From: Candidatus Latescibacterota bacterium
GTDB lineage: Bacteria; Latescibacterota; UBA2968; UBA8231
Length of the DNA stretch: 64,000 nt
Assembly (NCBI GenBank): GCA_965206595.1
Contig: OZ242214.1
Location: 896,001-960,000 of the forward strand
Direction of reading: 5' to 3'
The position numbers and the translations under genes are program-made. The notes beneath the pieces were generated by a model. It ran no database searches and was not told the origin of the DNA. It saw only the letters and a list, made by a program, of their open reading frames with translations. Positions 1 through 47,856 of this stretch are shown here, piece by piece (the first letter of the stretch is position 1; each line of letters begins with the position of its first letter).

Positions 1-362
1 AAGTCGAGCTGCGGTTCGTCCTTGAAGCCGTACCCGTCCGACGACTTGACCCAGCCCCCCGGCCGCTCTCGCAGGGTCGACGTAAGGTTGACGCGGTGGT
101 CCATCGTTTCGGGACCTAAGGAGCCGTCGGTGGTCTCGATCAGGTGCGCCGAGCCGAAGCGGTCCTCGTCGAGGGGGGTCCAGGAAAGGGAGACGAACTC
201 GACGTCCCAGTTTTCGGGGAACTCGGGCTCGGGCAGGTCTTCGGGGCCGCCGAGTCGATAGACGTAGAGGGTGGCGCTCGTGTCGGCGACCAAGCCGGGA
301 CCGAGGGCGAGCAGAGCGCACAGGGAAAGGGCGCTAAACAGGTTGGCTTTTGATCGGTCCAT
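1..362 (-). CDS. 5' part of a secreted Family B paralogue (runs off the window edge)
   Basis: Not in the ORF track. ATG at 362 with AGGAGGT RBS; open frame to base 1: MDRSKANLFSALSLCALLALGPGLVA...LGPETMDHRVNLTSTLRERPGGW. This matches the P-x-x-D-x-x-x-N-L...R-GG N-terminal motif of the 6275, 41273 and 43230 proteins. Confidence 0.75.
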   Translation of the reverse strand, partial: MDRSKANLFSALSLCALLALGPGLVADTSATLYVYRLGGPEDLPEPEFPENWDVEFVSLSWTPLDEDRFGSAHLIETTDGSLGPETMDHRVNLTSTLRERPGGWVKSSDGYGFKDEPQLD

Positions 363-426
363 CGCGGGACCTCCTTTGATGCAGGGCCTTGCGTCAAACA
401 TATATGCTGACCGAGACGGCATGCGG

Positions 427-3405
427 CTATCTCAGGGCGGCGAAAAGGGTCAGGTAGGCGAGGCCGGCGGTCGTCGCCTTGCGCTCGGCGGCGACGACCT
501 CGAGGGAGCGGCGGTCGACGCGCAGTCCGAGTTGCATGGTCAGCTTGTACCCGAGGAACTCGCTGACGTTGGTGAGTTGGAGCGCCGCCGCTGTGCCCCG
601 GAAATCGCCCGAGATCGTCCCGGCCGGCAGCTCCTCCTCGCCGCCTCCCAGCTCCTCGAAGAAGCGCTGCTCCAGCCCGGCCTTGAGGCGGCTCCTCTTC
701 AGCACGGGGAACTCGACCAGGAAGAAGAAGATGCCGTCCCAGGAGCGCCGCTTTCCCTCGCTCAGACTGAACGGCGTCTCGCGCAGAAACTCGCTCTTGA
801 ACCTGGGCGACAGCTCGACCCGCCCGTACCTCTGCAGGTATTCGATTTTGTTGATGAGCCCGAAGAACCCCGACTCCCGGCGCCCGTTGCGCCCCTCCGG
901 TCCCAGGGGATCGAACACCGACAGGGTGTCGCCCACCGCGTCCAGGCTCACCTGCAGGTCGCTGTCGCGCTGTCTCCAGGTCTCCCACTTCAGGCGGCTC
1001 ATCGACCTCCAGGGCCGCCTGCCCGCCAGCTCCCAGTCGACGTAGAGGACGTTGATCCAGGTGTCCTTCGCGGCCAGCGGGTCGAGGACCGGCTCCATGC
1101 CGCCGCTGCTCGAGATGGGATTGCCCAGCACGGGACGCTTCATGCGCCACTGTACCAGGTTGTCGGGGATGGTGTCTTCCGCCTTCCTCAGCATCTCGAA
1201 GACGCGGACGCGCCCGGCTCGCGGCGTGCTCCTGTCCAGGATGAGCAGGCCGTAGCTGGTCCGGTTCCCGCGGCTCGACCTGCCCATCTCCTCCCGCAGC
1301 TGTCCGAGCTTCAATTCGATCTCGGGGGTGATCTCGACCCCGCCGAAGAGATTGTAGCCGAAGTGGTCCTTCTTGTAGGGGTAGTCCGGCTCGTCGTCGT
1401 TCTCGAACCGCTCGATCCAGCCGTTGTTGTTGAGGTCCATGCCGAAGAGGAACTGCGGCCTGTCGGAGCGGAAGCGCAGGAAGGGCTCGTCGTAATCGGG
1501 GAAGAAGTTCGGCCGCTCCGGCGTCGTGTTCTGGTTGAAGTCGGAGATGAAGTCCTGGTTCTCGTCGTACCCGGGAAAGACCTCGGGGTCCGCGACGCCG
1601 CCTAATTTAATGGAGGCCTGACGACTGGCCCGGATGGGGACCAGAGATCCCTGCCCCAAGCGGCGTTGATCGGGCTGGCGGTCGTTGTCGTCGTTGTCGT
1701 CGACGTAGTCGTAGAGCAGGTTGCTCGCCTCGGTGTCGTAGTTGGGCAGACCGCCGAGGTCCATGAGCAGGACGCTGGTCGTGTAGTCGTCGTCCATGCC
1801 GAACCCCTCGGCGAACAGGGACCAGGGCCCACCCCTCCAGGAGGCGTTGACCATCCACCCGATGGCGCGCTCGTGGCCGGGGAAGCCGGAGACGGCGCGA
1901 TGCTGCCTGCGGGTCACTCCTGGGTACTTGCGGTACTGATTGTTCAGGTTGACCTCGCCGTAGAAGTCGAAGCCGTGGAAATTCCGGATCTCGGCGGTGA
2001 CGCCGGCGATGTTGTTCGCCGTGGGCAGGCCGTAGTCGAACACGACCTCGCGCTGGTTGAGCCGGTTCTTGACGTTTCCGGCGGCGCGCGTCACCGTGCG
2101 GAACTGGGGGACCCCCTCCTCGTTGGTCTGCCGGTCCGAGGTCACGGCGATGGCGTAGTCGTTGGCGACGATGAGCCTGACCCGGAGGTTCTCGATCGCC
2201 GCGATCGCCTCCTCCGTCTCGGTCGGGGTCAGGCCCAACTCGGTTCCCAGCAAGGAGCGCAGCGTGAGGGGTTCCAGCTGCGCAACCCTTTCCTCAGCGA
2301 CGATCTGCGGCGGCAGTTCCAGCAGGTAGTTGAGGACGATCACGTCGCCGCCGTCGGCGGTGCGGAACCCCTCGATCAGCTTGCCCTCGCCGATCCCCAC
2401 CTCCCCGGTGACGAACTGAAGCCCCGGAATCGCCTCGAAGCCGATGTCGCTGCCGACTATGACGGTGTCGATCGGCACGATCGCAACCCCGTCGCCGGCG
2501 GGCACCTCGCGCATTAGAGTCGTAGTGATCTCTATGTCGCTGCGTATGAGAAGGCCCCCCCCTTCGCCGTCCTCCGGCGAGTCGTCGGAGATCCTGACGG
2601 CGAGGGTGTTCACCCCCCTCGAGGCCTGCTCGGGCGAGAGGAAGCCCTTCAGCGGGTTCCCCTGCAGGGTTTCGTAGGTGCCGCTGTTGTTGTGGCTGTT
2701 GACGAGGTTGAAACCGAGGGTGAGGGCGTCGTTGACGTCGAATTCAACCCGCCCCCCGGCGAGCGCGGTCGTATTTCTCACCCTGCCCGCCCCGGAGGCC
2801 AGCATCGGGAGGTTGATCCTCGAAAACAGGCCGGTGGCGCGGTAGCGGCCGCTCTGCATGCTCGTGACGACGCCGTTGAAGCCTGCCTTGCGCAGGGTCA
2901 TCGGGGTCAGCAGCGCCGAGATCTCGTCGCCGATCAGGATCGAGAAAGAGGTGTCGCCCCGGCGGTCGGAGCTGATCAGCAGGCGGCTGAACCAGCCTAT
3001 GTACTGCCCCTTGCGGACGACGTTGGAGCTCTGCGAAAGCAGCGGCTGGGTCTGGCGCCAGTCGTAGATCAGCCAGCCCCTTGAGGCGAGGTTGCCGTAG
3101 AGGTCGTAGAAGTAGTCCCCTTCCTGGCCGGGAGCGACGTAGCGCAGGTAGCTGTCGATCCCCCAGTTGGTGTACTGCCACTGGCGGCGGCCGTACTCGG
3201 CGAACTGGGTAGGCGGCATGTACCACCGGTGGACGGCCGGATCGAGGGTCTCGGCGTATATCGGCACCCCGGAGGACCGGAAGAACAGCTCCTCCCCGAG
3301 ACGGGAGCCGAGGCGGTTGCCGTACTCGACGGCGCCCAGCGGGGCAGCGGCCGCCAGATGGAGCAGGACCGCCCCTGTCAACCACGCCCTTGTCTTCGCC
3401 CGCAT
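427..3405 (-). CDS. Family A paralogue 1: ~990 aa secreted protein with Asp/Asn-rich Ca-binding-like cassette and beta-barrel-like C-terminus
   Basis: ATG 3405 after GAGG; signal peptide MRAKTRAWLTGAVLLHLAAAAPLGA; motifs EGDYFYDLYG, DDSPEDG, DYGLPT, YDYVDDNDDNDRQPD, FPGYDENQDFISDFNQN, DLNNNGWIERFEND. Confidence 0.85.
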   Translation of the reverse strand: MRAKTRAWLTGAVLLHLAAAAPLGAVEYGNRLGSRLGEELFFRSSGVPIYAETLDPAVHRWYMPPTQFAEYGRRQWQYTNWGIDSYLRYVAPGQEGDYFYDLYGNLASRGWLIYDWRQTQPLLSQSSNVVRKGQYIGWFSRLLISSDRRGDTSFSILIGDEISALLTPMTLRKAGFNGVVTSMQSGRYRATGLFSRINLPMLASGAGRVRNTTALAGGRVEFDVNDALTLGFNLVNSHNNSGTYETLQGNPLKGFLSPEQASRGVNTLAVRISDDSPEDGEGGGLLIRSDIEITTTLMREVPAGDGVAIVPIDTVIVGSDIGFEAIPGLQFVTGEVGIGEGKLIEGFRTADGGDVIVLNYLLELPPQIVAEERVAQLEPLTLRSLLGTELGLTPTETEEAIAAIENLRVRLIVANDYAIAVTSDRQTNEEGVPQFRTVTRAAGNVKNRLNQREVVFDYGLPTANNIAGVTAEIRNFHGFDFYGEVNLNNQYRKYPGVTRRQHRAVSGFPGHERAIGWMVNASWRGGPWSLFAEGFGMDDDYTTSVLLMDLGGLPNYDTEASNLLYDYVDDNDDNDRQPDQRRLGQGSLVPIRASRQASIKLGGVADPEVFPGYDENQDFISDFNQNTTPERPNFFPDYDEPFLRFRSDRPQFLFGMDLNNNGWIERFENDDEPDYPYKKDHFGYNLFGGVEITPEIELKLGQLREEMGRSSRGNRTSYGLLILDRSTPRAGRVRVFEMLRKAEDTIPDNLVQWRMKRPVLGNPISSSGGMEPVLDPLAAKDTWINVLYVDWELAGRRPWRSMSRLKWETWRQRDSDLQVSLDAVGDTLSVFDPLGPEGRNGRRESGFFGLINKIEYLQRYGRVELSPRFKSEFLRETPFSLSEGKRRSWDGIFFFLVEFPVLKRSRLKAGLEQRFFEELGGGEEELPAGTISGDFRGTAAALQLTNVSEFLGYKLTMQLGLRVDRRSLEVVAAERKATTAGLAYLTLFAALR

Positions 3406-3416
3406 CTTCTTCACCT

Positions 3417-6275
3417 CTACTGGCCCGCGTACACGGTGATGAAGCCGGTCGATTCGGTCGCCCCTGCCCTCGCCTTCTCGAACTCCCCGGCGGCGCGGTC
3501 GGCGAGCTGCACTCTCTCGGTGAAAAACCGCGCCAGCCGGAAGCCGATCTGGGTCGTCAACCGGTACCCCAGGTAATCCGAGGCGTTGGTCAGCTGGATG
3601 GCGCCGATGAGCGAGCGCAGGTCTCCGGTCTCGCCCACAGCCCCGAGCTCGAGCATCTCTTCCTCGTCGGCGAGCCGTTCGCTGAGCTGGGCGAGCTCCA
3701 GTCCCAGGGTCAGCGAGCTCCGCGCCAGCACCGGGAACTGGGTGACCAGCGTCGCAATCCCCGTCCACTGCTCCTGGCTCTTCTCCGCTTTCAGGAAGGC
3801 GTCGCGCCTGAGGAACTCGCTTTTGAACTTCGGCTGCACCGTCAGGCTTCCCAGGGTCCAGTTGAAGTCCGCCTTGTTCACGAGGCCGAAGAGGACGGGC
3901 GTGGCGCGCAGCGGTCTGCCGGACGGATCCCTGGGATCGCCGGCCCTGTTGTCGTAGAGCTCGTACTTGAGCTTGTTGGCGATGCGCAGGTTCGGTACCG
4001 CGGTGTAGTCGAGGCCGATCCAGGCGGTGTTGACCCAGGTGTCCTGGGCGGGGAGCACGTCCTCGACCAGGGGCGGGTGGCCTGCCACCTTGAAGGGAGA
4101 GACGTCGCGGCGGTCGTCGGCGATCGCGTCTTCGGCCAGCTTGAGCATGTCGAGGACGCGCACGCGTCCGAGGTTGGGGTAGTCCCTTTCGAAGCTGGCG
4201 ATCGCGTAGGTCGTCCGGTTGCTGCGCTCGTCGGAGATCATGCCCTCGTCGAGCCTGCCCAGGGTGATGCGGGCCTCGGGGGTCACCTGCATGCCGCCGA
4301 AGAGGTTGAAGCCCCGGCGGTCCTGCCTGTACGGGTAGTCGGGCAGCTCGTCGTTCTCGAAGCGGTCGACCCAGCCGTTGTTGTTCAGGTCGATTCCGAA
4401 AAGGAATTCCGGCCGCTCGACGTCGTGCCTGAGGAACGGCTCCTCGTAGTCGGGGACCGTGTTCGAAACCGCGTTGTTGTCGTTCTGGTTGAAGTCGCTG
4501 ATGAAGTCGTTGTTCTCGTCCCAGCCCGGGAAGACGTTGGTGTCGCTCAACTTCGAGCCGGATCTCACCCAGTCGGGGATGTCGTCCTGATCGTCGTTGT
4601 CGTCTACGAACTCGTAGGCGTGAATCGGCAGGTTGTCGTACTCGACGTTCCCCTCGGTATCGACGACGAAGCTTCGGGTGGAGTAGTCGCCGTCGATGGC
4701 GTACCCCTCGCCGTACAGAAAGAACGGGTACTCCTCCTTCGACACCGTCAGGTAGCGGGCGTCGGCGGTCCGGCGCGAGATCTCGTGGCCCTCATTGGCG
4801 GTGAACAGGGTGGCGTTCGGGTACTGAGAGTAGCGGAAGCTGCGGTCCCATTCCGCGTAGAAATCCACACCCCAGAGGTCGACTCCCTCGATCGTCGCTC
4901 CGGCCACGAGGTTGGCCGTCGGCAGGCCGTACTCGAACACGACCTTGCGGATGTTCGAGATGTCGGTGACGTTGCCGGCGGCCCTCGTCACCGGCAGCAG
5001 CGCCACCCCCCCCTCGAGGATCTCGCTGGTTATCGGAGGGGAGGGAACTCCCGCCACGGTCCGGCCGCGATACGAGCGCGCCCTGCCGGGCTGCTTGTTA
5101 GACCAGATCTCGACCTTGTAGTCGTTGGCGAGCACGTAGTCGAACTCGACCGAGACGATATGGGTCTCGTCGAGGCCGGTCTCCGCGGGAAGCTGGAACC
5201 CGGGGTCGGTGAAGTCGTAGTTCAGGATGATCGGCTCGTCGCCGTCCGCGGTCCGGAACCCCTCGCGCTCGAAACCACCGAGCACCAAAGGCCACTCGGT
5301 GCCTGGACGCACGACGTCCGCCAAGGTCCACACCCGCTCCTGTCCGGTCTCGAAATCCCGGGTGGTGATGCGCACGTCGTGCTCGAACAGGGCGGCCCCG
5401 GCGACGCGGTCGGCGGGCGAGTCGTCGCTGAGGATGACGGCGATCGCCGTCAGCGGCGTCCCGCTCTGGCCGGCGGTCAGGTTCCCGGCAACGAGGTCCC
5501 CGGTGAACAGCTCCAGCGCCGAGTTGGAGTTGCGGGCGTCGACGAAGGTGCCGCCGAGGGTTACGTGATCGCCGAGCACGACCTCCGCCCGTCCGCCGAA
5601 CATGCTGGTCGAGTTGGTCTGGCGGTCGGCCTGGGCCTGGGCGAGGATGATCGGGTTGCTGATGCGGGATCCGAGGATCGTCGCCGCGTACCGGTTCCCG
5701 GTAAAGTCGACCTGGACGCCGTCGAAAGCCGCCTTGGAGAAGGTCAGGGGAGTCAGGGTCGTGCGGATCTTGCTGCCCACCGTGACCGAGTAGGTCCGGT
5801 CTCCCTGCTTGTCCCTGGCGATCGTCGCGTTGCTGAACCAGCCGGCGAACTTGCCCCCCTTGAAGACGCTGCTGCCGTCGGAGAGCGGCTGTTCCTGGCG
5901 CCAGTCGTAGACGAGGAAGCCGCGGCTGGCGAGGTCGCCGAAGTAGTCGTAGAAGTAATCCCCTTCGACCGCGGTGTTGACGTAGCGCTGGTAATGCCGG
6001 CGCCCGTAGTTCGAGTACCGCGACTGGAGCCACCGGTACTCGTTGTAGAGCTCTTCCGGGATGTACCAGCGCTTCACCGTCGGATCCAGGGCCCCGAACA
6101 TCACCCCGCGTCCCCGGGGCTCGAAGCTCACCTCGCCTCCCCGCTGCACCTGGTGCCGGGAGCCGAGATCCCCGGTTTGTCCGAAGCCGGGTGCGAGCGG
6201 CGGCAGCAGGGCGCAGGCCGCGGTCCAGGCCAGGAATATCCGTCGCGCGCGCGCGCTTTGGTCGCGGGAAGGCAT
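3417..6275 (-). CDS. Family A paralogue 2 (~950 aa)
   Basis: ATG 6275 overlaps the upstream TGA (TGATG); signal peptide; same motif set (YEFVDDNDDQDDIPD, FPGWDENNDFISDFNQNDN); ends GFITVYAGQ. Confidence 0.85.
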   Translation of the reverse strand: MPSRDQSARARRIFLAWTAACALLPPLAPGFGQTGDLGSRHQVQRGGEVSFEPRGRGVMFGALDPTVKRWYIPEELYNEYRWLQSRYSNYGRRHYQRYVNTAVEGDYFYDYFGDLASRGFLVYDWRQEQPLSDGSSVFKGGKFAGWFSNATIARDKQGDRTYSVTVGSKIRTTLTPLTFSKAAFDGVQVDFTGNRYAATILGSRISNPIILAQAQADRQTNSTSMFGGRAEVVLGDHVTLGGTFVDARNSNSALELFTGDLVAGNLTAGQSGTPLTAIAVILSDDSPADRVAGAALFEHDVRITTRDFETGQERVWTLADVVRPGTEWPLVLGGFEREGFRTADGDEPIILNYDFTDPGFQLPAETGLDETHIVSVEFDYVLANDYKVEIWSNKQPGRARSYRGRTVAGVPSPPITSEILEGGVALLPVTRAAGNVTDISNIRKVVFEYGLPTANLVAGATIEGVDLWGVDFYAEWDRSFRYSQYPNATLFTANEGHEISRRTADARYLTVSKEEYPFFLYGEGYAIDGDYSTRSFVVDTEGNVEYDNLPIHAYEFVDDNDDQDDIPDWVRSGSKLSDTNVFPGWDENNDFISDFNQNDNNAVSNTVPDYEEPFLRHDVERPEFLFGIDLNNNGWVDRFENDELPDYPYRQDRRGFNLFGGMQVTPEARITLGRLDEGMISDERSNRTTYAIASFERDYPNLGRVRVLDMLKLAEDAIADDRRDVSPFKVAGHPPLVEDVLPAQDTWVNTAWIGLDYTAVPNLRIANKLKYELYDNRAGDPRDPSGRPLRATPVLFGLVNKADFNWTLGSLTVQPKFKSEFLRRDAFLKAEKSQEQWTGIATLVTQFPVLARSSLTLGLELAQLSERLADEEEMLELGAVGETGDLRSLIGAIQLTNASDYLGYRLTTQIGFRLARFFTERVQLADRAAGEFEKARAGATESTGFITVYAGQ

Positions 6276-8500
6276 CAGTACGCGACCCCCACAATGCCGA
6301 CCCGTTGCACACCCCCGGTCGAAGCGTCGAGTGACACGGTGAAGATGTAGTTGCCCGGCGGCACCGTTTCCCCGGCGTCGTTCAGGCCGTTCCACGGGTG
6401 CGCGAAGCGGCCGCTGGGATCCTCGCCGTCGTACAGGCTCGCCACCTTCCGTCCGGAGAGGTCGAACACCTCGACCCTCACCCGCCTCGGCTCGGCGATG
6501 TTGGTGATGTCGTAGTGGATCAGGGCGCCGTCGTTGACCCCGTCCCGGTTCGGCGTCAGCACCGCGGGGACCGCTTCGACGTTGATGAGAAGGTCCCGGG
6601 TTATCGGCACGGACACCGACAGGTTCCCCGGGTTGAGACTGCCAACCGGCAGCGAGTCGGGATCCTCGAGGCCGCCGTCCCCGAGGTCGGCCGCGTTTCC
6701 CGGAACGAGGTCCTGGCCGATGCCCGGGTGGGCGGCGTTCCGGGCGCGCCCGGTGAACAGGGTGCCGAAGCGCAGCACCGAGTTGTCGAAGCCGACCTTG
6801 ATCACCGCCCTTTCCTCCACCCTCGGGAAGGAGATGACCAAACCGTCATCCCGCACCTCCTCGATGGAGACCTCGTTGCGCGTGACCGGCAACGCGTCGA
6901 GCGCGGCCCCGGTGAAATCCGCCGCCTGCGGCGATCCGCCGCGCTCGATTTCGATCCATCCCACCGCGGGAGTCCGCGTCGGGGTGTCGATCTCGATGCG
7001 GTCGAAGCCGACGCCGTCGGCGGCCGGCTCGCAGAGAACGGCGTAGGTGAATCCGGTGCGCTCGCCCACAGCCGCGGCGCGGGGCAGAATCTCGGCGATC
7101 AGCCTGCCGGCGAAGGCGGGAGAGAGGGCTTCGAAGCTCAGCCCTCCGAGCCCGGTGGCGGCGTCGAACGAGTCGTTGGCGAACTCCACCATGAACTGGA
7201 AGTACCGCCGCGGACCTGGGGAAGAGATGGAGGTCCCCCCGCCGGCCTTTCCCAGGGACTCGGGATCGACGATTCCCGCGGCCGGGTACGGCGCCGACCA
7301 GGGGCTCCAGTTGGTCAGATCCTCCCGCAGATCCCCGCGCTCCGATCTGTCGACCTCTCTTCTGTAGTACTCCTGATCTATCTCGAGAGCGGCCCGCTGC
7401 TCGAGGGAGAGCTCGTTGTAGAACAGCAGCACGTCGCGGCCGTCGAGGTCGGGATTGTCGAGCACGGTTTCGACGATCTCCCGCAGCTCCTCGTCTTCGA
7501 TGGCGTCGGCGCGTTTCCACAGCGCTTCGATCGGGATGTCGACCTCGAAGATGTCCGCCTCGACGAGCTGCAGATCGATGCGCCCCGAGGGCTGCAGCCC
7601 CACCCGCGGGAACACCACAGTGGCCGGATCTACTCCCGTTCGGGTGCGGATTCGCATCTCCGACAGCAGCGGATCCCCCTGCTGTTCCTCGACCCAGCGG
7701 ATGTTCCCGAGAAGGGTCGGGATGCCGAAGTCGATGATGTTAGAGACGTAGGTCGCCTCGGGAACGAAGCCCTGCGCGAAGGCCTGGAACTCGGCGATCT
7801 CGAACTCGGTGTTGGTCAGCACCTTGAGCCTGAGGTGGCGGACGAAGCGCGGCTCGATCCTGAGGTCGACGACCGGCTCATCGTTCTTTTCCACTGCCTC
7901 GAGGGTCTCGAAAATCAGCACCCCGTTGCTCTCGCTCTCCGGGGCGCCGTCGTTCTCGAGGATCTCGAACGACTTGAGGAAGTCTTTTTGATTGGGGAAT
8001 CCAGGGGCCGCGTAGGCCGGGTCGGCGTTGCGCGGAAAGAACCTGATGCGGTTCAGGGCGAAAACGGCGCCGAGGTCGAACTGCATGATGAAGCCGCTCG
8101 CCCGCGTGCTTTCCCCGGCCCGTTCCGGACGGACTTCCAGGGCCGTCTCCCCGTCGTCGTCGATCATTTTCGGAAACTGCCCCTCCAGCGACCGCAGGCT
8201 GAGCGTCGGCGTCGCCAGCGACCCGCCCCTTTCGGGCGAGGTCAGGCCGATCATGATGTTGCGCTCCGTGTCGACCTGCTGCGGAAAGATCCAATCGGGC
8301 CGCTCCGCGGTGCCGAAGTCGATGACCCCGCCGGGGGCGTTGGTCTCCTCCGCGGTGGTGAGGCCGCGGATCACGGTCGGCGGAATGTCCCCTTCGTCGC
8401 CCCACTGGATGCCGCCGGGGCCTCCGATGACGATGGTTTCGACCTGTGCCTCGGCCGCCGGCAGGAGGGCTAGCAATGCGATGAGGAGGATCGCCGCCAT
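6275..8500 (-). CDS. Family B secreted protein (741 aa): discoidin/F5-8-like domain, WSPWS motif, FlgD-Ig/T9SS-type-B-like C-terminal domain
   Basis: ATG 8500 coupled to the upstream TGA; signal MAAILLIALLALLPAAEAQ; DLGAVFALNRIRFFP...FEIAEFQAF; C-term PAVLTPNRDGVND...VFDLSGRKV...WNGLNDAGETVPPGNY. Confidence 0.85.
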   Translation of the reverse strand: MAAILLIALLALLPAAEAQVETIVIGGPGGIQWGDEGDIPPTVIRGLTTAEETNAPGGVIDFGTAERPDWIFPQQVDTERNIMIGLTSPERGGSLATPTLSLRSLEGQFPKMIDDDGETALEVRPERAGESTRASGFIMQFDLGAVFALNRIRFFPRNADPAYAAPGFPNQKDFLKSFEILENDGAPESESNGVLIFETLEAVEKNDEPVVDLRIEPRFVRHLRLKVLTNTEFEIAEFQAFAQGFVPEATYVSNIIDFGIPTLLGNIRWVEEQQGDPLLSEMRIRTRTGVDPATVVFPRVGLQPSGRIDLQLVEADIFEVDIPIEALWKRADAIEDEELREIVETVLDNPDLDGRDVLLFYNELSLEQRAALEIDQEYYRREVDRSERGDLREDLTNWSPWSAPYPAAGIVDPESLGKAGGGTSISSPGPRRYFQFMVEFANDSFDAATGLGGLSFEALSPAFAGRLIAEILPRAAAVGERTGFTYAVLCEPAADGVGFDRIEIDTPTRTPAVGWIEIERGGSPQAADFTGAALDALPVTRNEVSIEEVRDDGLVISFPRVEERAVIKVGFDNSVLRFGTLFTGRARNAAHPGIGQDLVPGNAADLGDGGLEDPDSLPVGSLNPGNLSVSVPITRDLLINVEAVPAVLTPNRDGVNDGALIHYDITNIAEPRRVRVEVFDLSGRKVASLYDGEDPSGRFAHPWNGLNDAGETVPPGNYIFTVSLDASTGGVQRVGIVGVAY

Positions 8501-11355: not shown

Positions 11356-11501
11356 AATCCCGAACAGACCTATGGGACTTGCAGACAGAATTACCGGATG
11401 ATCTGCCCGAACCGCATGAGGTAACATATTAATGAAAAACGTCCTCAAAATCGACCCGAAATCAACCTGGCGACCGATTTTCGGAAAACCAGCTTTACCT
11501 G

Positions 11502-11533
11502 TTGGTATTGATAAAATTTGGTATTGATAAAAT
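11502..11533. repeat. Perfect 16-bp tandem direct repeat (TTGGTATTGATAAAAT x2) in a divergent promoter region
   Basis: Read directly at 11502-11517 and 11518-11533, just before ATG 11535. Confidence 0.9.
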
Positions 11534-11534
11534 T

Positions 11535-20220: not shown

Positions 20221-20234
20221 GCGGAAAGGACGGC

Positions 20235-34800: not shown

Positions 34801-34847
34801 TCTTCCAACCTCCTAAGGGACAAATGATCCTGCTTGCGAAAAAGCTG

Positions 34848-36797: not shown

Positions 36798-36973
36798 GAC
36801 GGGCCTCGGGCAGGAAGGATGGCCGCGGAAGGGCGTGGAGGGTACCCGGATTGGTGGAAACTGTCAACGAATCCCCCCCTCGCCAGGGGGCGATTCTCAA
36901 AGAAGCTTCGATAATTGCCGTATCTCATTGTAGAATAACACATTACGAGTATATCCCGGTATGGAAATTGTTC

Positions 36974-37003
36974 TTGACACGCAAGCTTGGATTAACGTAT
37001 GGT
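36974..37003 (+). promoter_or_regulatory. Putative sigma70 promoter for the 37101 gene / locus 2
   Basis: TTGACA (36974-79), 18-bp spacer, TATGGT (36998-37003) in an AT-rich divergent intergenic region. Confidence 0.5.
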
Positions 37004-37100
37004 ATGATATACATCCCCTGCAGACTGCAGGTGTACACAAGTGTAGTAAATCGCACACTCTCTTGTAGTAACACACTTTCTCCCAAGGAGGATTGGAACC

Positions 37101-37976
37101 ATGCGAAAGCTACTTTTTCTGCCGCTGGCGGTGGCCATAATGGCCATACCGGCGTCTGCACACCAAGGCTCCGGCCCGTTTCTGGCCGTTCAGTTTCCCG
37201 ACGATGGGTTGCCCACGATCGATGGGGACATAGGCGAGTGGCAAGCGCTTCCCGATTATTTCCAGGTTCTGATCGAGGATGGTAATGGGCCCCCAGCCGA
37301 CTGGAACACTGAAATCGACAAGGCGGACCTGGACTTTGGTTATTGGGGGGGCTACAACGCCAGCAACGATAAGTTGTACGCGGCCGCCTGGGCGTTCGAC
37401 GACATTCACGTGAGAGATGACCCCGACGGCACGGACTGCGCCTGTAATGACGACAGCTACGAGTTCTTCACGGACGCCGATCACAGTGTCGACACTGGCG
37501 GGGACTACGGTATCGGCTGGTGGAATATCACGTGGCCTCCAGTGAATGGTGTGTCCCATGCTGGCGGCGGAGGACCCGGGTTCAATCATGATCCGGAGTA
37601 CTTGAATTACGCCGTCACTTTCGAGGGCGAGGAGTTCGGCGAGAGCACTTATTACTACGAAGTGGAATTCGCTCCTTTTGACGTATTGACGAAGGATGCC
37701 GACGGAAACGACAACGGCTCTGTCCAGTCCACGCTCGATCCGGGCGAGACCATCCATTGGGAGATGATCATGACGGACGACGACGCCGAATTGAGCGACC
37801 GAGCCGAGCAGTACCCCAATGGCCGGTGGAAGAACGACGGCTGGTGGTCCCTCGGAGTAGGAGCTGCCCACAGCGATACAGCTCCTGACTGGGAGCTGGA
37901 CACCGATGTCACCAGCGCCATGGCCACGGCGGTGGAGAGCAAGACCTGGGGCCGCTTGAAGTCCCGGTTTCGCTAG
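37101..37976 (+). CDS. Secreted acidic CBM9/DOMON-like protein with C-terminal TAVExxTWGxxK motif
   Basis: AAGGAGG RBS; signal peptide; PTIDGDIGEW, DDSYEFFTDADHS; ends ATAVESKTWGRLKSRFR. Confidence 0.8.
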   Translation: MRKLLFLPLAVAIMAIPASAHQGSGPFLAVQFPDDGLPTIDGDIGEWQALPDYFQVLIEDGNGPPADWNTEIDKADLDFGYWGGYNASNDKLYAAAWAFDDIHVRDDPDGTDCACNDDSYEFFTDADHSVDTGGDYGIGWWNITWPPVNGVSHAGGGGPGFNHDPEYLNYAVTFEGEEFGESTYYYEVEFAPFDVLTKDADGNDNGSVQSTLDPGETIHWEMIMTDDDAELSDRAEQYPNGRWKNDGWWSLGVGAAHSDTAPDWELDTDVTSAMATAVESKTWGRLKSRFR

Positions 37977-37982
37977 TCTTCG

Positions 37983-38022
37983 GATTGAGGCCGATCAATA
38001 CGATCAGGCGCAATCTTTTTTT
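37983..38022 (+). terminator. Possible intrinsic terminator 1 (imperfect hairpin + T run)
   Basis: GATTGAGGCCGATC-aatac-GATCAGGCGCAATC followed by TTTTTTT. Confidence 0.5.
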
Positions 38023-38032
38023 GAGGATACTG

Positions 38033-38072
38033 AACGAGGGAGGGGTTGCATTACCTCCCTCGTTTTTCTTTT
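38033..38072 (+). terminator. Intrinsic terminator 2
   Basis: Perfect 11-bp stem AACGAGGGAGG / CCTCCCTCGTT followed by TTTCTTTT. Confidence 0.7.
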
Positions 38073-38103
38073 CACGCCCTGACAGAGAGTCGGGAGACCT
38101 CAT

Positions 38104-41100: not shown

Positions 41101-41256
41101 GCGGGCGGAGAACGGGTGCTGGAATGGCATGGTCGCAGCGGTCGCGACAACGCCGGGGAGCTCGTGGCGCCCGGGCTCTATCTGTGCCGCGTTCACGTGG
41201 ACAGCGACGCGGGCTCTGGAAACACGCTGGTCCGCCTCGTCAGCCTGGCATTTTGA
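38104..41256 (+). CDS. Family B secreted protein (1050 aa): two discoidin-like domains, internal repeats, WSAWS, FlgD-Ig/T9SS-like CTD
   Basis: Signal peptide; WWIEFDMGRLVSAEKI and IIDLGALFWVDAFRI; SPSPRRFL; PNPFTPNGDGIND...PGLY. Confidence 0.85.
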   Translation: MYGSPSMTRAPLWAAILLLWSNPGFSQEQPGYRIDIQKRQITVNTDKQWGQWLLGDLEQPLDSVSQDVLEVRMKNGGRDALIVPREFRRQVDALTDAPGFSHVIDAKDKAQFISVFEEGGPRAPGGIKNAGSNLALADGAIDRGDDRLETYWEPDLDEPSFKWWIEFDMGRLVSAEKIILRFVDEELGDPFLQFRVLVSTGLLKFDSSVRPLDYRTVGGTTRGIRDQREFTFDLEPDVKADPDFTGTPLQYVRIVVTDSNLDRAEEVTREVYENDLSPESRGRIEYYLKSFDGDVVLTTREAYETIETEEPDRLGPVRYYRRERPRLADVEVITAGDNIALGIFERGGKLTYQGTSPGILANAFNGSFLDEWRARLVMQPGQSGTSDGGGGPLIIDLGALFWVDAFRILGDPTEAQYPLWGWTVRVSDGSTASDGTPIWNMVSPPERERNATTNRFIYAEDRFEPLRTRFIEFVHLDGSNTATPTHVGVRAMQVFGEGRVAGVVLTSPLIEFKDRSNRRQAHALTRVEWVGETPPGTRIEVRTQTGNEVIPKWRFFLTNGTEVTRDNYWNRRTKPKDRGDSLATFSQGVDWSAWSRAYEHSGDRFISPSPRRFLRLQATLDSDRPDAVATLDSIIVHFTDPFASQVLAEVTPQIDVASGVPDTFSVFVRPIFRADEPDTSTRFDEIRVLASHRTEMELIEVRVGGQDALLAGEEAEVEEFGDDGQGGFVNSAGDRLEILSTRADTLWIRLPGFVDYDAGSPPVYYRIAVARDEAPLDKSGGVLTEAAWSRLPTEPLNEQGRIDYFEVTATDPETGAQTLRLVNEGDYNELPFESQGPVRYYRALFDGEEVAIGNDGESLTRTSYNQLSSSQKGPVLREGEVVELRFRSRIFVSGTTFSAEVANSKEADTRIPELWQKADPGNAMEEIDGQGTAVITPIGDQPALSALEIGPNPFTPNGDGINDRVRLLLSVSNVDAPRRIEARFFTLAGVEVAVVSSMAAGGERVLEWHGRSGRDNAGELVAPGLYLCRVHVDSDAGSGNTLVRLVSLAF

Positions 41257-41272
41257 GAAGGAATCCACCACC

Positions 41273-43267
41273 ATGCGTGCCAGGGGTTTCGTCTACGGGT
41301 TGGCCGGCCTTCTCATCGGCCTCGCCGCCTCCACAAGCGTGCATTCGCGCAGCATGCTGGTGATCGGTGAACGCGACAATCCGTGGTCATCCGACCCCGG
41401 AATGTCGGTGGAGCACCGCACCTGGGGCGAGGCCAGGGCTGAAAGAGAGGAGGGCCTCTACCCGGACTACAACGAGACAGCCCTGGGAATCATCAATCTG
41501 GACACTTCCGCGACACACGTGATGCCGATCAGGGTGACCCCGGACTTCAATCTTTCCCTGGGCTATGAGGAGCGGGGAGGCTGGCAGCGAGAGCGGGTTT
41601 TTCAGCGCGTCCCGGGGTATTTCGAACGGGCTTTGGATGGAGACATCACCACCGTCTACAATTACCGGGGCGATTTCGGGGGCCCGGAGGGAACACCCCA
41701 GCCGACCGTGGACCTGGGAGGCATTTTCCCCATCAACCGGATCGTCTTCTACACCCACCCGGACTCCAGCGAAAAGTACGCCGATGTTTTCAGACTGTAC
41801 GTCGACGGGGCGCTGGTCCGCGAGGAGCTGGACAACAAGAAGGACAGCGTGGAAGTCACCTTTCCAATGCGGCACGGGCAAGTCGTCGCCATAGAGCCCA
41901 TAATCCGAAGAAACAAGGCTGGCATCTCGATCCCTCCCAAAACCTGGCAGCTCGCCGAGTTCGAGATCTACGGCGACGGCTACGTGCCCAAAGCCTCCTA
42001 TATCTCCGAGATCATCGACATTGAGCAGGTGGCGCCCCTGGGGTCCGGGGAGCAGGCCAGCTGGGGCCGGCTATACTGGACCGGCACCCGGGACCCGGGT
42101 GCCCGGACCGTCATCCGCACCCGCACCGGCCGCGCCGGGGACACGCCCAACAACGGCGATTTTCCCGACCCCAGTGTCTATTCCGTGTTCACCGGGCGGG
42201 GTGACGAATTGTCGACTTTGACGGTTGACGGCGAGCCATTGACCCTGGCCGACTACAGCAGTCTGGACTATGCCCCCCAGCAAGCTGCCATCACCTACGA
42301 TATCGAAAACTGGAGCTTCTGGTCGACGCCCTACGATTTCGACAAGGGCGCCGAGGGGGTGCCCGTGGTTTCGCCGGGGCCGCGGCGCTATATCCAGTTT
42401 CGCATCGACTTCTTTCCCACGATCACCGACGGCAGTCGCCTGGAGGCGATCGGGTTCGACTTTTCCAAGCCGCCCAGCGCCAGCAGGGCCGTCGCCGAGA
42501 TCTTCCCGAAGGAGGTGCCGGCGGCGGTCGACACCACCTTCACCTACACCCTCCTGCCCGAACTGGCAGACACCGATCGCGGCTTCGACAGCCTGGAGAT
42601 CGAGACATTCGTGGAGCCTTCGGCGGTGCGCCTGGTTCGGATTGACGGTGCGGGCACTGAAAAGATCATCTGCGAACCGTGCCTTCTTCACCCGGACGAC
42701 ACCCACCCGAACGCCGAGATCATGGACGATCGTCTCGTCGTGCACTTCGACACTCTCAAGGGAGTCGCCGATGCCGGGAAGCGGGTGCAGGTGGTGTTCG
42801 ACGCCTCCGTGGTGAAGTTCGGCACGGAGTTCAAGGGCCGCATATTCATCGATGGCAGCGACGAAGTGCGACAGCTTGTGGACGGCGGGGATGCCATCGA
42901 TCGCTACAGCGCAGGCGGGGTCGTGGTGACCATCCCCTTGAGCGAGGAGCTGATCAGTCAGGTGCGGGTGCAGCCGAGCCCGTTCACGCCCAACGGGGAT
43001 GGGATCAACGACGAGATTAAGCTCTCCTATGCGCTGCTCAACCTGACCGACGCAGCTGCCGCCGACGTGGCCATCTACGATCTGACCGGCCGCCGGGTGA
43101 GGCAGCTGCGAAGCGAATCGCTGGTCAGCGGCATTCACGGTGAGAATTGGAACGGGCGCGACGATGATGGCAGGCTCGCCCCTCCGGGAATTTACATCTA
43201 CCGGATATCGATCGAGACGGACGAGAGGAATGAAGACCATAGCGGCATCGTCTACGTGGCCTACTAG
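41273..43267 (+). CDS. Family B secreted protein (664 aa)
   Basis: AAGGA RBS; signal MRARGFVYGLAGLLIGLAASTSVHS; DLGGIFPINRIVFY...WQLAEFEIYG; WSFWS; SPGPRRYIQF; PSPFTPNGDGIND. Confidence 0.85.
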   Translation: MRARGFVYGLAGLLIGLAASTSVHSRSMLVIGERDNPWSSDPGMSVEHRTWGEARAEREEGLYPDYNETALGIINLDTSATHVMPIRVTPDFNLSLGYEERGGWQRERVFQRVPGYFERALDGDITTVYNYRGDFGGPEGTPQPTVDLGGIFPINRIVFYTHPDSSEKYADVFRLYVDGALVREELDNKKDSVEVTFPMRHGQVVAIEPIIRRNKAGISIPPKTWQLAEFEIYGDGYVPKASYISEIIDIEQVAPLGSGEQASWGRLYWTGTRDPGARTVIRTRTGRAGDTPNNGDFPDPSVYSVFTGRGDELSTLTVDGEPLTLADYSSLDYAPQQAAITYDIENWSFWSTPYDFDKGAEGVPVVSPGPRRYIQFRIDFFPTITDGSRLEAIGFDFSKPPSASRAVAEIFPKEVPAAVDTTFTYTLLPELADTDRGFDSLEIETFVEPSAVRLVRIDGAGTEKIICEPCLLHPDDTHPNAEIMDDRLVVHFDTLKGVADAGKRVQVVFDASVVKFGTEFKGRIFIDGSDEVRQLVDGGDAIDRYSAGGVVVTIPLSEELISQVRVQPSPFTPNGDGINDEIKLSYALLNLTDAAAADVAIYDLTGRRVRQLRSESLVSGIHGENWNGRDDDGRLAPPGIYIYRISIETDERNEDHSGIVYVAY

Positions 43268-45071
43268 GAGCTCGTGGCGGACTCCCCGTCACCGCAGTAT
43301 CGCGGGCTGCTGCTTCATCGGGGTGACCGTTTTCTTCGTCCACGGGAGCCTGGCGCTGGACACCCTCGTCGGCGGCGGAGTGGAGAACACCTGGTCCGAT
43401 TTCGGCACTGCCCCCGGGAACGTCATCGATTTCGCAACGGAGCCCGGCTGGATCGCGCCCATCCAGATCGACCCCGAGGTCAACCTCATCGAGCAGATCC
43501 GCGCCAGGGGGGGAACAGTGGATATCGATTCTCCGAACAGTCCGGTCCGCAGGACCCAGGGCGACCAGGTGCTGCAGGATGCCCTGGACAACATCATGAA
43601 CGGCTCGGTTTCCGAGGTGTACGACCGCAAGATCGCCAACTCGACCTTCGGGGAGCACATCGACATCGATCTGGGTGCTCCCCTCGGCATGGATCGCATC
43701 GTCTTCTATCCCAGCTCCCTCTTTCCCCGGGAGTTTCTGAGGGCCTTCTACATCCAGGTCAACGACGGCAAGAGCAATCTCGCCGAGTCCGGCAACCCCG
43801 AATGGAACACGATCGGCAGATTCCACGAACGGCAGAATACCAGGACCCGGGCCGAGATGCGGATACCGCTCCAGTTCGTCCGCTACCTGCGCCTGACATC
43901 CCAGTACCACGGGGGATTCGAGATCGACGAGATCGAGCTTTACGGTCGCGGCTACGTGTCGGACGGCAGCTACCTGTCCAATCCCTTCGACCTGGGGGAG
44001 CAGGGCTCACTGTGGGGCCGGATAAACTGGTCTGCCGCGGCCATCGGCGATCCCTTTCGTTCCGGCATTACCGTGCGCACCCGAAGCGGCCGGGATGCGC
44101 AGGATTGGAGCCCCTGGTCGGAGCCTTATCGGCTGGCCGAAGACCGCGGTATCCAGATCACCTCACCGGCCCCCCGTCGGTTCTTTCAATTCGAGATCCG
44201 CTTTGCCAGCGAGGACCTGGAGGCGGCACACAAGGTCGATTCCCTCTCCTTCGAGCACTCGCCGCCGGTCGCCCAGGAACTCGTCGCGGAGATTTTCCCG
44301 CGTCAGGCGCAAATCGGCGAGGGCAAGGAATTCGTCTATGCCGTGCGGGCCTTCGGGCCTTCCGACAGGGGCTTCGACACCTTCGAGGTCCGGACCTCGG
44401 CCCCCATCGAGCGCCTCGAAGAGATTAAGATCCTCAGTCAGGAGGGGGATCTGCTCCTGAACAAACAGGGTGCAGATGCGGACGAACACCTGGTGTCCCC
44501 GCATCCTTTCAAGGTGCGTTTTCCCCCCATCACGGAAGATGGTTCCGTGCTGAAACTCCGCTTCGTCACATCGGTTCTGCGCTACGGCATCGTCTTCGAC
44601 GGATGGGGGTTGAACGAGGGATCCGACGAGTTGCCGCAGCCTGCGGTTCCCGGCAACGCCGTGGATCTCAGCGGCGACTTTCCCGGGCTGAACCTCCTGG
44701 ATGAAGACAAGCGCTCGAACCTGACCGTTCTCACCGACATCGAGGGGGTGGCTCTTGTGGACGCCGTGGAGGCTGTGCCCAACCCCTTCACCCCCAACGG
44801 CGACGGCATCAACGACAGCGCCGAGATCCGCTCCGACGTCTTCAAGCTCACCAAGGCGACGCCAGTCGAGGTCGTCGTCTACGATCTTTCCGGCCGCCGC
44901 ATCGCCGTCCTGTTCGCGGGCGAGATCGAGAGCGGCCGCCACTCCGTACCGTGGGACGGCACCTACGCTGACGATCGGCTCGTGCCGCCCGGACTCTATC
45001 TGCTCAAGCTCGAGGTAAAAGCGGACGTCAAATCAGAAGAGGTCCTGGGAACGGTCGTCGTCGTCTATTGA
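43230..45071 (+). CDS. Family B secreted protein (~610 aa, minimal form; start uncertain)
   Basis: DLGAPLGMDRIVFYP...RYLRL...FEIDEIELYG; RTRSGRDAQDWSPWS; SPAPRRFFQF; PNPFTPNGDGIND...YDLSGRRI...VPPGLY. Confidence 0.85.
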   Translation: MKTIAASSTWPTRSSWRTPRHRSIAGCCFIGVTVFFVHGSLALDTLVGGGVENTWSDFGTAPGNVIDFATEPGWIAPIQIDPEVNLIEQIRARGGTVDIDSPNSPVRRTQGDQVLQDALDNIMNGSVSEVYDRKIANSTFGEHIDIDLGAPLGMDRIVFYPSSLFPREFLRAFYIQVNDGKSNLAESGNPEWNTIGRFHERQNTRTRAEMRIPLQFVRYLRLTSQYHGGFEIDEIELYGRGYVSDGSYLSNPFDLGEQGSLWGRINWSAAAIGDPFRSGITVRTRSGRDAQDWSPWSEPYRLAEDRGIQITSPAPRRFFQFEIRFASEDLEAAHKVDSLSFEHSPPVAQELVAEIFPRQAQIGEGKEFVYAVRAFGPSDRGFDTFEVRTSAPIERLEEIKILSQEGDLLLNKQGADADEHLVSPHPFKVRFPPITEDGSVLKLRFVTSVLRYGIVFDGWGLNEGSDELPQPAVPGNAVDLSGDFPGLNLLDEDKRSNLTVLTDIEGVALVDAVEAVPNPFTPNGDGINDSAEIRSDVFKLTKATPVEVVVYDLSGRRIAVLFAGEIESGRHSVPWDGTYADDRLVPPGLYLLKLEVKADVKSEEVLGTVVVVY

Positions 45072-45135
45072 CGAAAACCTCCATCGCCGGTCGTGCACAG
45101 CAGAGTTTGTTAGGGTATCCAGAGGAGGGTTTGTA

Positions 45136-47856
45136 GTGAAAAGACCGGCTTTTTCCAACCGTGCTGCTCTGTTCGCCTTGACCGTCATCGCGGGTTCCGT
45201 TCCCGTTCTCGCGCAGCAGGACTATGGCTCGCGCCTGGGCACGCGCAAGGCGGACGTCTGGAGCTACCAACCCCAGGGGACCAGTGTGCTCACGGGCACT
45301 CTCGATCCGGCCATGCGCAAATGGTACGTGCCTGGCGAGCTCTACCAGGAATTCCGCTGGCGCCAGTGGGAGTACACCAACTACGCCCGCGAACCCTTCC
45401 AACGCTACGTCGACATCAATCTCGAGGGCGACTATTTCTACGATCTCTACGGCAATTACATCTCCAAAGGCTGGCTTATCTACAACCACAGCCAGAATCA
45501 ACCCCGGGCCCAGTTGGGAAATTCACTCTTCAAGGACGACAGGTTCAAAAATTGGTTCTCCGGTGTCCTGATCGCATCCGACCACAAGGGCCAGTACCAC
45601 ACGTCGTTGAGCATCGGGAGCTCACTGCGCACCGTTCTCACGCCGATGACCTTTTCCAAGCCCGACTTCGACGGTCTGCAATGGGACTTCGCCTCCGACA
45701 AGTACGAAGCCACCGTCCTCTATTCCCGCATCAACCTGCCTGGCGGCGAGAAGACCCCGACGGCTATCGAGCTGACCAACAACACCACCCTGTTCGGCGG
45801 CCGGGTGACCGCCCAGGTGGGGGATTTCATCAAGCTCGGCGCCAATTTGGTCAACGCGCATCAGTCCCACACCGACCTGGAGAGTTTCGAAGGCAGTCTC
45901 ATCAAGGGGGAATTGACCCAGGATCAGAACGGGTCCCCGGTCGAGTGGGTCGAGCTCATCCTGAGGGACGACTCGCCGGAAGACGGCGAGGGAGGGACCT
46001 CCTTTTTCGAGGGAGGCTCCGATCTCGTCATCACCTACATCGACGGAGAGCAGGAGACCGCCAGGCAGATCGGTTTCGAACCGGTGGTCCAGGGAGGGTT
46101 CGAGCGCACCGGCTTCAGGGCCGCGGACGGCAGTGAAGAGATCAGCGTGAGATACGATTTCGACAGCACCGGCCCCGCAGGTTTCGTGGACAATGCCCGC
46201 GGAGACAAATCGGAGATCGAACGGGTCCGCTTTCAACTGCCGGTCGGCAACGACTACCAGGTCTGGGTGAATTCCAATCGCCAGACCACCCATTTGGGCG
46301 GGGGGAGCGCGACTGCCGATCAGACCACGCCCCTGCTCGTGGCCCGGGCCGAGGGCAACGTCCAGGACAACTCCAACCTGCGCCTGCTCAGCTTCGATTA
46401 CGGCCTGCCAACGGGTACCCAGGTCGTCGGCGCTACTATCGAGATGACGGATGTGTTCGGCGTCAGCGTCTATGGCGAGTACGACGTGTCCTACAACTAC
46501 AGGATGTACCCCAACGCCAACCTGATAACCCATGACTCCTTCTCCGGCGTCAGGGGTGATCGCCGCGCCGACGCCTGGATGGTGAACCTTTCCAAACAGG
46601 CCTACCCATTTTTCCTCTTTGGTGAGGCCTTCAGCATGGATCACGATTACTCCACCAGCACGGTCACCACGAGCACCACGCCGCGGACGGGGTTCGTCGA
46701 CTACGGGAACCCGCGCTTCTTCTATGAATTCGTCGACGACAACGACGACCAGGACCGGATCCCCGACCTCGCGCGCAAAGGAGCGGGCAACGGCGACTTC
46801 GACATATTCCCCGGATGGGACGAAAACAACGACTTCATCTCCGACTTCAACCAGAACGACAACCGCCGCAGCGCACGACGCAACGAGTTTCCGGACTACG
46901 AAGAGCCCTTTCTCCGCTTCAATGTCGATCGACCGGAGTTCCTCTTCGGTCCCGACATGAACAACAACGGCTGGATCGACAGGTTCGAGAACGACAACGA
47001 GCCCGATTATCCCTACCGGCGGGATCACCGCGGCTACAACGTATATGCCGGCGCCAACATCACCCCGGAAATTCGAGCGATCGTCGGCCGCATGGACGAG
47101 CGCCTCCTCTCGGAAGACCGGCACAACGAGACCAACTACCTGCTCGCCACTTTCGACCGGGACTATCCGGGGTTCGGTCGTCTGCGCGTTTACGACATGG
47201 TCAAGCGCGCCCAGGACAACATTCGCGAGAACCTGCTGCAGTGGGCTTACCAGACCGCCGAGTCCGAAGGGCAACCAGTCAACATCACCGACCCCCTCCT
47301 GCTCGAGGACGGCTGGCACAACAGCCTGTGGTTGAATTTCGACTACACCGGGGTGCGGAGCCTGCGTTTCATCAACAAGGTCAAGTACGACCTGACCCAC
47401 ACCCAGCTCGGCAAGGAGGATCGCAGAATTCGCGGCCAGCTGCAGAACGAGCATTTCTTCGGCGTCATCAGCAAGGTCGGCTACGAGTTCAGCCTGGGCC
47501 GGATGAAACTGGAGCCGCGATGGAAGAGCGAGTACCGGAACCAGACGCGCGATCATGCCGCGGTCGGTGAGCGCGAAGAGCTCACGGAGCTGTTCTCCGT
47601 GCTCGCTCGCTTCCCCATCCTGAGGAGCTCCTATGTCGAGGCGGGGGTGGAGTACATCCAGTTCAGGGATCTGCGGCAGGATCTCAACGATCTGAACAAT
47701 CGGGTCCTCGCCGTGCAGTTCACCAACACCAGGGATTATCTGGGCTACAAACTGAGCACCCAGATGGGGGTCAAGTTCGACCGGCGCGACCCCGAAAACG
47801 GGCCGGCCAGGAGCCTGCAGAGCAGCTTCATCAGCGTTTTCGCCGGGCTGGAGTGA
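45136..47856 (+). CDS. Family A paralogue 4 (906 aa)
   Basis: AGGAGG RBS, GTG start, signal peptide; EGDYFYDLYG, DDSPEDGEGG, YEFVDDNDDQDRIPD, FPGWDENNDFISDFNQNDN; ends SFISVFAGLE. Confidence 0.9.
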   Translation: MKRPAFSNRAALFALTVIAGSVPVLAQQDYGSRLGTRKADVWSYQPQGTSVLTGTLDPAMRKWYVPGELYQEFRWRQWEYTNYAREPFQRYVDINLEGDYFYDLYGNYISKGWLIYNHSQNQPRAQLGNSLFKDDRFKNWFSGVLIASDHKGQYHTSLSIGSSLRTVLTPMTFSKPDFDGLQWDFASDKYEATVLYSRINLPGGEKTPTAIELTNNTTLFGGRVTAQVGDFIKLGANLVNAHQSHTDLESFEGSLIKGELTQDQNGSPVEWVELILRDDSPEDGEGGTSFFEGGSDLVITYIDGEQETARQIGFEPVVQGGFERTGFRAADGSEEISVRYDFDSTGPAGFVDNARGDKSEIERVRFQLPVGNDYQVWVNSNRQTTHLGGGSATADQTTPLLVARAEGNVQDNSNLRLLSFDYGLPTGTQVVGATIEMTDVFGVSVYGEYDVSYNYRMYPNANLITHDSFSGVRGDRRADAWMVNLSKQAYPFFLFGEAFSMDHDYSTSTVTTSTTPRTGFVDYGNPRFFYEFVDDNDDQDRIPDLARKGAGNGDFDIFPGWDENNDFISDFNQNDNRRSARRNEFPDYEEPFLRFNVDRPEFLFGPDMNNNGWIDRFENDNEPDYPYRRDHRGYNVYAGANITPEIRAIVGRMDERLLSEDRHNETNYLLATFDRDYPGFGRLRVYDMVKRAQDNIRENLLQWAYQTAESEGQPVNITDPLLLEDGWHNSLWLNFDYTGVRSLRFINKVKYDLTHTQLGKEDRRIRGQLQNEHFFGVISKVGYEFSLGRMKLEPRWKSEYRNQTRDHAAVGEREELTELFSVLARFPILRSSYVEAGVEYIQFRDLRQDLNDLNNRVLAVQFTNTRDYLGYKLSTQMGVKFDRRDPENGPARSLQSSFISVFAGLE

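Follow-up and report, generated by a model that had tools for sequence, protein, structure and literature searches.

The stretch of DNA examined here, a window of 64,000 nucleotides from a Candidatus Latescibacterota bacterium (assembly GCA_965206595.1, contig OZ242214.1, positions 896,001 to 960,000), carries two operons built from the same two protein families, which we call A (predicted outer-membrane barrels) and B (predicted discoidin proteins with tails resembling those known from type IX secretion systems, T9SS). We asked how these families are linked to each other and to the energy and secretion machinery of the cell.

The two loci and their gene families

A sequence-only reading of the window had placed four A and five B genes in two operons, in the orders A-B-A-A-B and B-B-B-A, and all nine genes were found as placed. 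Locus 1 lies on the minus strand in the order A1-B1-A2-A3-B2. A1 (8500..11295) is a subtype alpha barrel without Pfam or NCBIfam match and has an uncertain start, either the CTG at 11295, with GGAG upstream, or an ATG at 11427. B1 (6275..8500; subtype s1, 741 amino acids, aa) has a signal peptide and a CHU_C/FlgD-like C-terminal domain, A2 (3417..6275; 952 aa) is again of subtype alpha and A3 (427..3405; 992 aa) of subtype beta. B2 (1..362) is the 5' part of an s2 gene that runs beyond the window start and is followed, outside the window, by a sixth, long B gene. Translational coupling through TGATG, which had been proposed for this locus, is present at two of its four junctions (A1/B1 and B1/A2), whereas there is no overlap at A2/A3 and A3/B2. 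Locus 2, on the plus strand, has the order B3-B4-B5-A4 and comprises the long subtype L protein B3 (38104..41256; 1050 aa, with weak F5/8 and CHU_C matches below cut-off), B4 (41273..43267; s2, 664 aa, CHU_C 41.2 bits), B5 (43230..45071; s1, 613 aa) and the subtype gamma barrel A4 (45136..47856; 906 aa). The start of B5 at 43230 overlaps the end of B4, an arrangement shared by its closest homologue, P0271; B5 and A4 were modelled.

The four A proteins of the window share 35-58% pairwise identity over their full length, have signal-peptide-like N-termini and, as the sequence-only reading had suggested, could not be given a family name: none of the four matches any Pfam or NCBIfam family, and A4 has no sequence match in the PDB at E 10. 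The same reading had proposed a large barrel rather than a soluble protein, and A4 is indeed modelled with confidence as an outer-membrane barrel, with 23 long strands and a probable 24th (counted on the secondary-structure string), a first insert forming a beta domain (mature residues 220-397), a second insert that is conserved and Asp/Asn-rich (residues 476-604) and 70 initial residues modelled at low confidence. Comparison with structures (Foldseek, VIA) returned no close solved barrel among the matches listed, although this is no proof of a new fold; the nearest folds were MtrB, LptD, FimD and Deinococcus SlpA, with template modelling (TM) scores of 0.18-0.25 over the query, and the nearest large barrels in VIA had root-mean-square deviations of 6-10 Å and 6-13% identity. 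TonB-dependent receptors matched the model only at TM about 0.2, and their barrel and plug profiles gave no match in any of the four window proteins, with PF00593 finding 20 other sites in the genome. The PorP/SprF profile TIGR03519 did not match A (906-992 aa, against a barrel of about 300 aa with 292 profile positions), and none of the Glt, Gld or Spr models did so in the NCBIfam scan. SlpA_C (PF21620) was found below cut-off in two of six distant A proteins and in none of the four from the window, and there was no SLH match. All 30 ESM Atlas matches are uncharacterised, the nearest named cluster (DUF6029, at 0.88) being a lead only. An A profile recovered 1027 representatives at E ≤0.001 and 346 at 1e-30; named homologues came from metagenome-assembled genomes of Latescibacterota, Handelsmanbacteria or Gemmatimonadota, with single Pirellulaceae and Omnitrophota labels.

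Family B is more diverged, the five window proteins having 26-37% identity in their best local alignments; by eye, all five have N-termini of the basic-hydrophobic-AxA type that resemble signal peptides. The description of B as a discoidin protein with a T9SS-like C-terminal domain held in part. CHU_C (PF13585) is passed by three of the four complete window proteins and failed by B3 (19.4 vs 27 bits), and the B5 model contains a split beta-sandwich with an inserted CBM32/discoidin domain, an Ig-like domain and a T9SS-like C-terminal domain; however, none of the four reaches the TIGR04131 cut-off, discoidin Pfam scores stay below cut-off, and the fold comes from the B5 model only. This model superposes on PorU, but the C-terminal profile is not specific to such tails, since it has matches in FlgD and, as an internal domain, in C5a peptidase. 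Foldseek searches of PDB and viral models with B5 gave generic multi-sandwich matches (TM up to 0.23), so that a phage-tail likeness of the first domain derives from four of 50 VIA rows plus a single weak PHROG match (E 0.002). When A4 (residues 25-880) and the C-terminal domain of B5 (440-570) were submitted together to complex prediction, the score was 0.00 in two runs, which counts neither for nor against a contact.

Cassettes in this genome and its relatives

Profile searches of the whole genome detected 33 A open frames, counted as 32 genes because two of them make up a single gene, and 60 B frames, fragments among them; of these, 57 entered the tree (about 57-60 B genes). About 90 genes of one 7-Mb genome thus belong to two unnamed envelope families. 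A beta-type A gene at G000:C1 6373605-6376434 (G000:C1 denoting a contig of this genome) lies in two frames and adjoins a B gene whose end is aberrant (6371583-6373604); they may be pseudogenes or assembly errors, and two adjacent, near-identical A-IIb genes (G000:C1 3746753-3752677) may reflect recent tandem duplication or an assembly artefact.

The B tree resolved subtypes L, s1, s2 and II, while a quick A tree, with the careful search unfinished, separated group I (alpha, beta and gamma, including all window A genes) from group II (a, b and c). The subtypes are ordered: alpha directly precedes beta at six of the seven beta genes, and three group II clusters share the order B-a-b-c followed by a gene for a tetratricopeptide repeat (TPR) protein. 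Each group II cluster also carries a further family, C, with a tail like that of type-A T9SS cargo (G000:C1 3757803-3759884, 3832294-3834357, 4970754-4972736 and 6505204-6507159).

The proposed linkage of A and B extends well beyond the window. Within this genome, a B gene lies no more than 6 kb from 14 of the 15 A clusters (500 circular shifts: mean 1.4, maximum 9), as opposed to none of the 19 TonB-dependent receptor genes. In other genomes, each of the 80 loci examined around relatives of A4 also holds a B gene, although these loci come from related genomes and are not independent. Both families also share a distribution over 151 genomes of the phylum (see below). Seen from B, 35 of the 60 genes lie within 15 kb of an A gene. 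The three subtypes L, s1 and s2 occur together in 59 of the 80 A4-relative loci, and in 52 of the 58 with full flanks (best-hit assignment). Elsewhere the families part company: in G003 and G060, A multiplies far from B and pairs instead with U, the transducer described below, and G060 has dozens of group II barrels (126 profile matches), often solitary amid catabolic genes.

Two further genes recur in the cassettes. Locus 2 is preceded by H (37101..37976, plus strand), a secreted protein belonging to a family in which the remaining members give weak CBM9_1 matches, and followed by P (47869..50169, plus strand), a parvulin-type peptidyl-prolyl isomerase with a TPR tail. H was found within 15 kb of A at eight of 15 clusters and at 64 of 80 related loci, and P at nine of 15 and 61 of 80, respectively. 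The recurring set of B subtypes, the fixed order of A subtypes, the isomerase and CBM9-like cassette genes and a link to an ExbB/ExbD motor and a TonB-like protein bearing DUF4159 all go beyond the sequence-only reading. The H profile matches 71 frames of the genome, which share a short C-terminal tail, TAVE...WG.(I/L)K, distinct from a T9SS C-terminal domain and possibly another sorting signal. Directly after P, a membrane glycosyltransferase-like gene (50456-52882, plus strand; PMT_2 match) with TPRs, of which lookalikes flank other A clusters, may glycosylate B or A.

Among 32 neighbours of A (eight without match) are sulfatase, BNR, glycoside-hydrolase-like and oxidoreductase genes. The DUF6785/DUF6784 membrane proteins at 13578-15530 (plus strand) and 34848-36755 (minus strand), with 43 matches in the genome, were considered as a component and rejected, since they occur in all 51 A-lacking genomes of families f2-f4 and are absent from all 13 A-bearing genomes of f10. 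The window also contains a DUF5916 and CBM9-like outer-membrane protein amid sugar-catabolic genes (21907-24450, plus strand) and an HTTM/vitamin K-dependent carboxylase-like gene (54672-56063, minus strand; lowered GC content, 0.49 in 54001-56000) adjoining IS66 and DDE transposase remnants (56493-61769). Contigs from four sponge metatranscriptome runs of one study cover scattered pieces of B3 to P at depth 2-5, while H reaches about 30; many of these contigs stem from related strains and no silent control accompanies them, so they do not establish transcription.

Secretion genes and a Ton-type motor

The search for T9SS core genes, which the sequence-only reading had called for, gave a mixed result. 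The genome encodes SprA, PorU adjoining PorV, and further PorV-family genes, all over cut-off, but GldK falls below cut-off, GldL and GldM have no match in this genome (92.9% complete; divergent forms could escape) and neither does GldN, for which the control was uninformative. No PorP-family gene over cut-off was found in the genome. One A cluster lies 5 kb from SprA, with lptF/G-like genes (labelled by eye) in between, and this proximity was treated as coincidence.

In distant families, a gene of 340-410 aa, X, with weak PorV/PorQ-family scores and in one copy also a PorP score, lies directly between B and A (six genomes of four families). There, B, X, A, a giant TPR protein, ExbB, ExbD and U can form one operon: the order B-X-A(1-3)-T, where T is the TPR gene, is found in G001, G003, G006, G015, G017 and G032, with ExbB-ExbD-ExbD following in five and U in G006 and G017. 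The single X of this genome lies at 222 kb in an operon H-X-T-exbB-exbD-U (222-229 kb), in which T encodes 1089 aa, ExbB (PF01618) scores 83.5 bits, ExbD (PF02472) 102.1 bits, and U consists of a membrane anchor with a His, a linker and DUF4159. This His is conserved in nine of ten aligned U proteins, the residue four positions before it being Ser in three and Ala in six; the two U proteins scanned matched DUF4159 only, and neither a TonB_C or TolA C-terminal domain nor a vWA head. A FlgT-like and a PD40 propeller gene, reminiscent of TolB/PorE, lie upstream of this operon (G000:C1 215516-218462).

Thirty X loci included five with B-X-A and 15 with X-T. In a second set, 20 stretches from 19 genomes picked for a strong X match together with loci collected before, which also yielded the B-X-A(1-3)-T orders given above, X-T-ExbB-ExbD-U occurred in ten of 12 genomes of the same family and in G009. 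In G061 and G089, the strand that carries the motor operon has a gamma-type, A4-like barrel upstream of it; U paralogues sit at the three group II clusters of this genome, and U adjoins A in six of eight G003 stretches.

Across the 151 genomes, scored with thresholds that we chose for each family, A was present in 95, B in 93, U in 93, X in 85, SprA in 150 and DUF6785 in 137. All B-positive and all U-positive genomes were A-positive, and X showed one borderline exception; G003 was scored B-negative, yet a divergent B adjoins its X. The 56 A-negative genomes comprise 51 from three families of the same class, four from f8 and one genome that is 67% complete. SprA is present in families without U, and all 51 SprA-bearing genomes of f2-f4 are without U and X, for which reason the motor was rejected as a general T9SS motor. 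The system is optional beside SprA. These patterns link the two families with both a Ton-type motor and type IX secretion, and suggest that A may be coupled to the motor.

Candidate functions and known systems

We tentatively propose, with a probability of about 0.4, that the A/B cassette is the variable end, at the cell surface, of a proton-powered machine for the capture and uptake of nutrients, in which predicted lectins displayed by the T9SS sit on motor-gated barrels. Uptake is favoured because A multiplies as substrate-specific receptors do, in some cases with U but not B, amid catabolic genes. B would cross the outer membrane via SprA on the low-copy, PorV/PorP-like carrier X and, once exported, dock on its cognate A barrel, with three B subtypes per cassette; the parvulin may aid folding of the A and B proteins. 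ExbB and ExbD would act by way of U and the TPR protein and pull at the periplasmic face of A, either opening A or freeing whatever B holds, and for the window cassettes the motor operon at 222-229 kb would act in trans. A more elaborate version, which we regard as rather unlikely, would constitute a third way to power the outer membrane: ExbB/ExbD with a DUF4159 arm and a giant TPR scaffold would gate barrels of about 24 strands, each capped by a ring of three distinct lectins, exported by the T9SS and joined via the phage-tail-like domain, as a multiplied and independent counterpart of SusC/SusD.

Several observations weigh against uptake. A has no recognisable plug or TonB box (there being no Pfam match and a poorly modelled N-terminus), and TonB-dependent receptor genes of the ordinary kind are already present in the genome, 19 in number. 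For 25 of the 60 B genes, the nearest A is over 15 kb away, the catabolic neighbours of A were hand-picked without a background control, and the inner-membrane DUF6785 family is only weakly enriched near A (six of 15 clusters, about p 0.04) and uncoupled from it across the phylum. The window has no motor gene, and none of the 80 loci around A4 relatives contains U, X or T, so that the motor link is indirect for cassettes of the window type. Finally, the A-negative genomes belong mostly to three related families and therefore represent few independent losses rather than 56.

The sequence-only reading had offered, as one of two roles for A, an analogue of SprF/PorP that carries B through SprA. 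The tight A-B linkage, with A beside type-B-like cargo at 14 of 15 clusters and 80 of 80 related loci, and the absence of a PorP-family gene over cut-off in this genome would fit this role, but it has been weakened: A, at about 900 aa, is three times the size of PorP/SprF and does not match its profile, and because B and A are separated in distant relatives by another, small gene, the PorV/PorP-like X, which shares their distribution, A is probably not an SprF analogue, a role that we now consider very improbable. It is also improbable that A is a dedicated export pore for B, parallel to SprA and energised by ExbBD-U. While A is in a size class near LptD, FimD and MtrB, which pass large cargo, and the isomerase, TPR protein and PorV-like barrel echo SprA-PPI-SprE-PorV (PMC10994853, in part), the genome has SprA, PorV and PorU, B ends in a tail like that of T9SS cargo, a barrel of 24 strands would seem narrow for a folded multidomain B, and A expands without B in some genomes.

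Alternatively, A may be a surface dock and not a pore, with B exported on X via SprA and held by A as an adhesive or protective coat, and with ExbBD-U-TPR powering the hand-over in place of GldLM. We consider this possible, if doubtful. There is one X gene for about 57-60 B genes in this genome, so that B requires a different anchor if X recycles, and every A subtype follows B or another A in most loci. Type-B cargo of Bacteroidota remain bound to barrels (PMC9143113, in part), release of cargo from SprA costs energy (PMC10994853, in part), and GldL and GldM had no match here. A dock does not account for the multiplication of A far from B, paired with U, in G003 and G060; the 51 SprA-bearing genomes without U and X show that the motor does not serve the T9SS in general, and a plain anchor has no need of a 24-stranded lumen. 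B proteins could also be surface adhesins moved along the cell, with A as their outer-membrane platform, as in Agl-Glt of Myxococcus or SprB of Flavobacterium. When compared with the Agl-Glt parts list, one ExbB and two ExbD proteins, a TonB-like arm, TPR proteins, three ordered barrel subtypes and adhesin-like cargo are similar, and gliding has been suggested for vWA-headed transducers encoded downstream of TPR-tolQ-tolR-tolR (PMC12204202, in part). A motility machine, however, usually has no need for 32 barrel paralogues beside varied catabolic genes, and no Glt, Gld or Spr model matched A; we hold this explanation to be quite unlikely.

Should the uptake reading be true, A would represent a new class of barrel, and Ton and T9SS, which have been studied apart, would be joined. 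It would also provide a concrete target for DUF4159 and the recently proposed non-TonB force transducers, and a handle on what Latescibacterota take up. Members of this phylum are widespread, uncultured and predicted to use complex organic polymers, their outer-membrane uptake having been ascribed to non-specific porins (PMC4454575, in part), and no description of A or B was found in the text of that article. Our wider literature search, which covered sources other than subscription journals and supplements, likewise found no description of A or B, and for DUF4159 only the Pfam database article.

By sequence, A falls outside the TonB-dependent transporters, PorP/SprF and SlpA. A resembles MtrB, LptD, FimD and Deinococcus SlpA in that these are its nearest folds and two distant A proteins match SlpA_C weakly, but it lacks an SLH, haem-protein, usher or lipopolysaccharide context. 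Type-B cargo of the T9SS use PorP-like carriers, as in PG1035-PorP-PorE and SprB-SprF (PMC9143113 and PMC10994853, both in part). Here, by contrast, it is the 900-aa A and not the PorP-like X that multiplies with the cargo, the cut-offs of TIGR04131 and TIGR03519 are not reached, GldK (below cut-off), GldL, GldM and GldN were not found and an ExbBD motor is attached. The motor operon itself is similar to that of the vWA-headed transducers (Williams-Jones et al. 2025, PMC12204202, in part), in which TPR, tolQ/exbB and two tolR/exbD genes precede an anchored, His-bearing transducer with a non-TonB head; the head of U is DUF4159 instead, no large barrel or T9SS cargo is named in the available part of that paper, and the terms DUF4159 and Latescibact- are absent from its main text. 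U differs from TonB in ending in DUF4159 and not in TonB_C. Finally, SusC/SusD systems comprise many paralogous pairs of a barrel and a surface-binding protein amid catabolic genes, served in trans by a Ton-type motor. Like those of the Bacteroidota polysaccharide utilisation loci, the A/B cassettes are many paralogues of a large barrel and a surface protein amid catabolic genes, with ExbB/ExbD encoded elsewhere. No profile of TonB-dependent receptors or their plug matches A, which is modelled with 23-24 strands (the receptors being 22-stranded barrels closed by a folded N-terminal plug), and B is not a SusD-type lipoprotein but a predicted discoidin protein bearing a C-terminal domain. The overall working would parallel that of SusC/SusD with TonB, while being built of unrelated parts.

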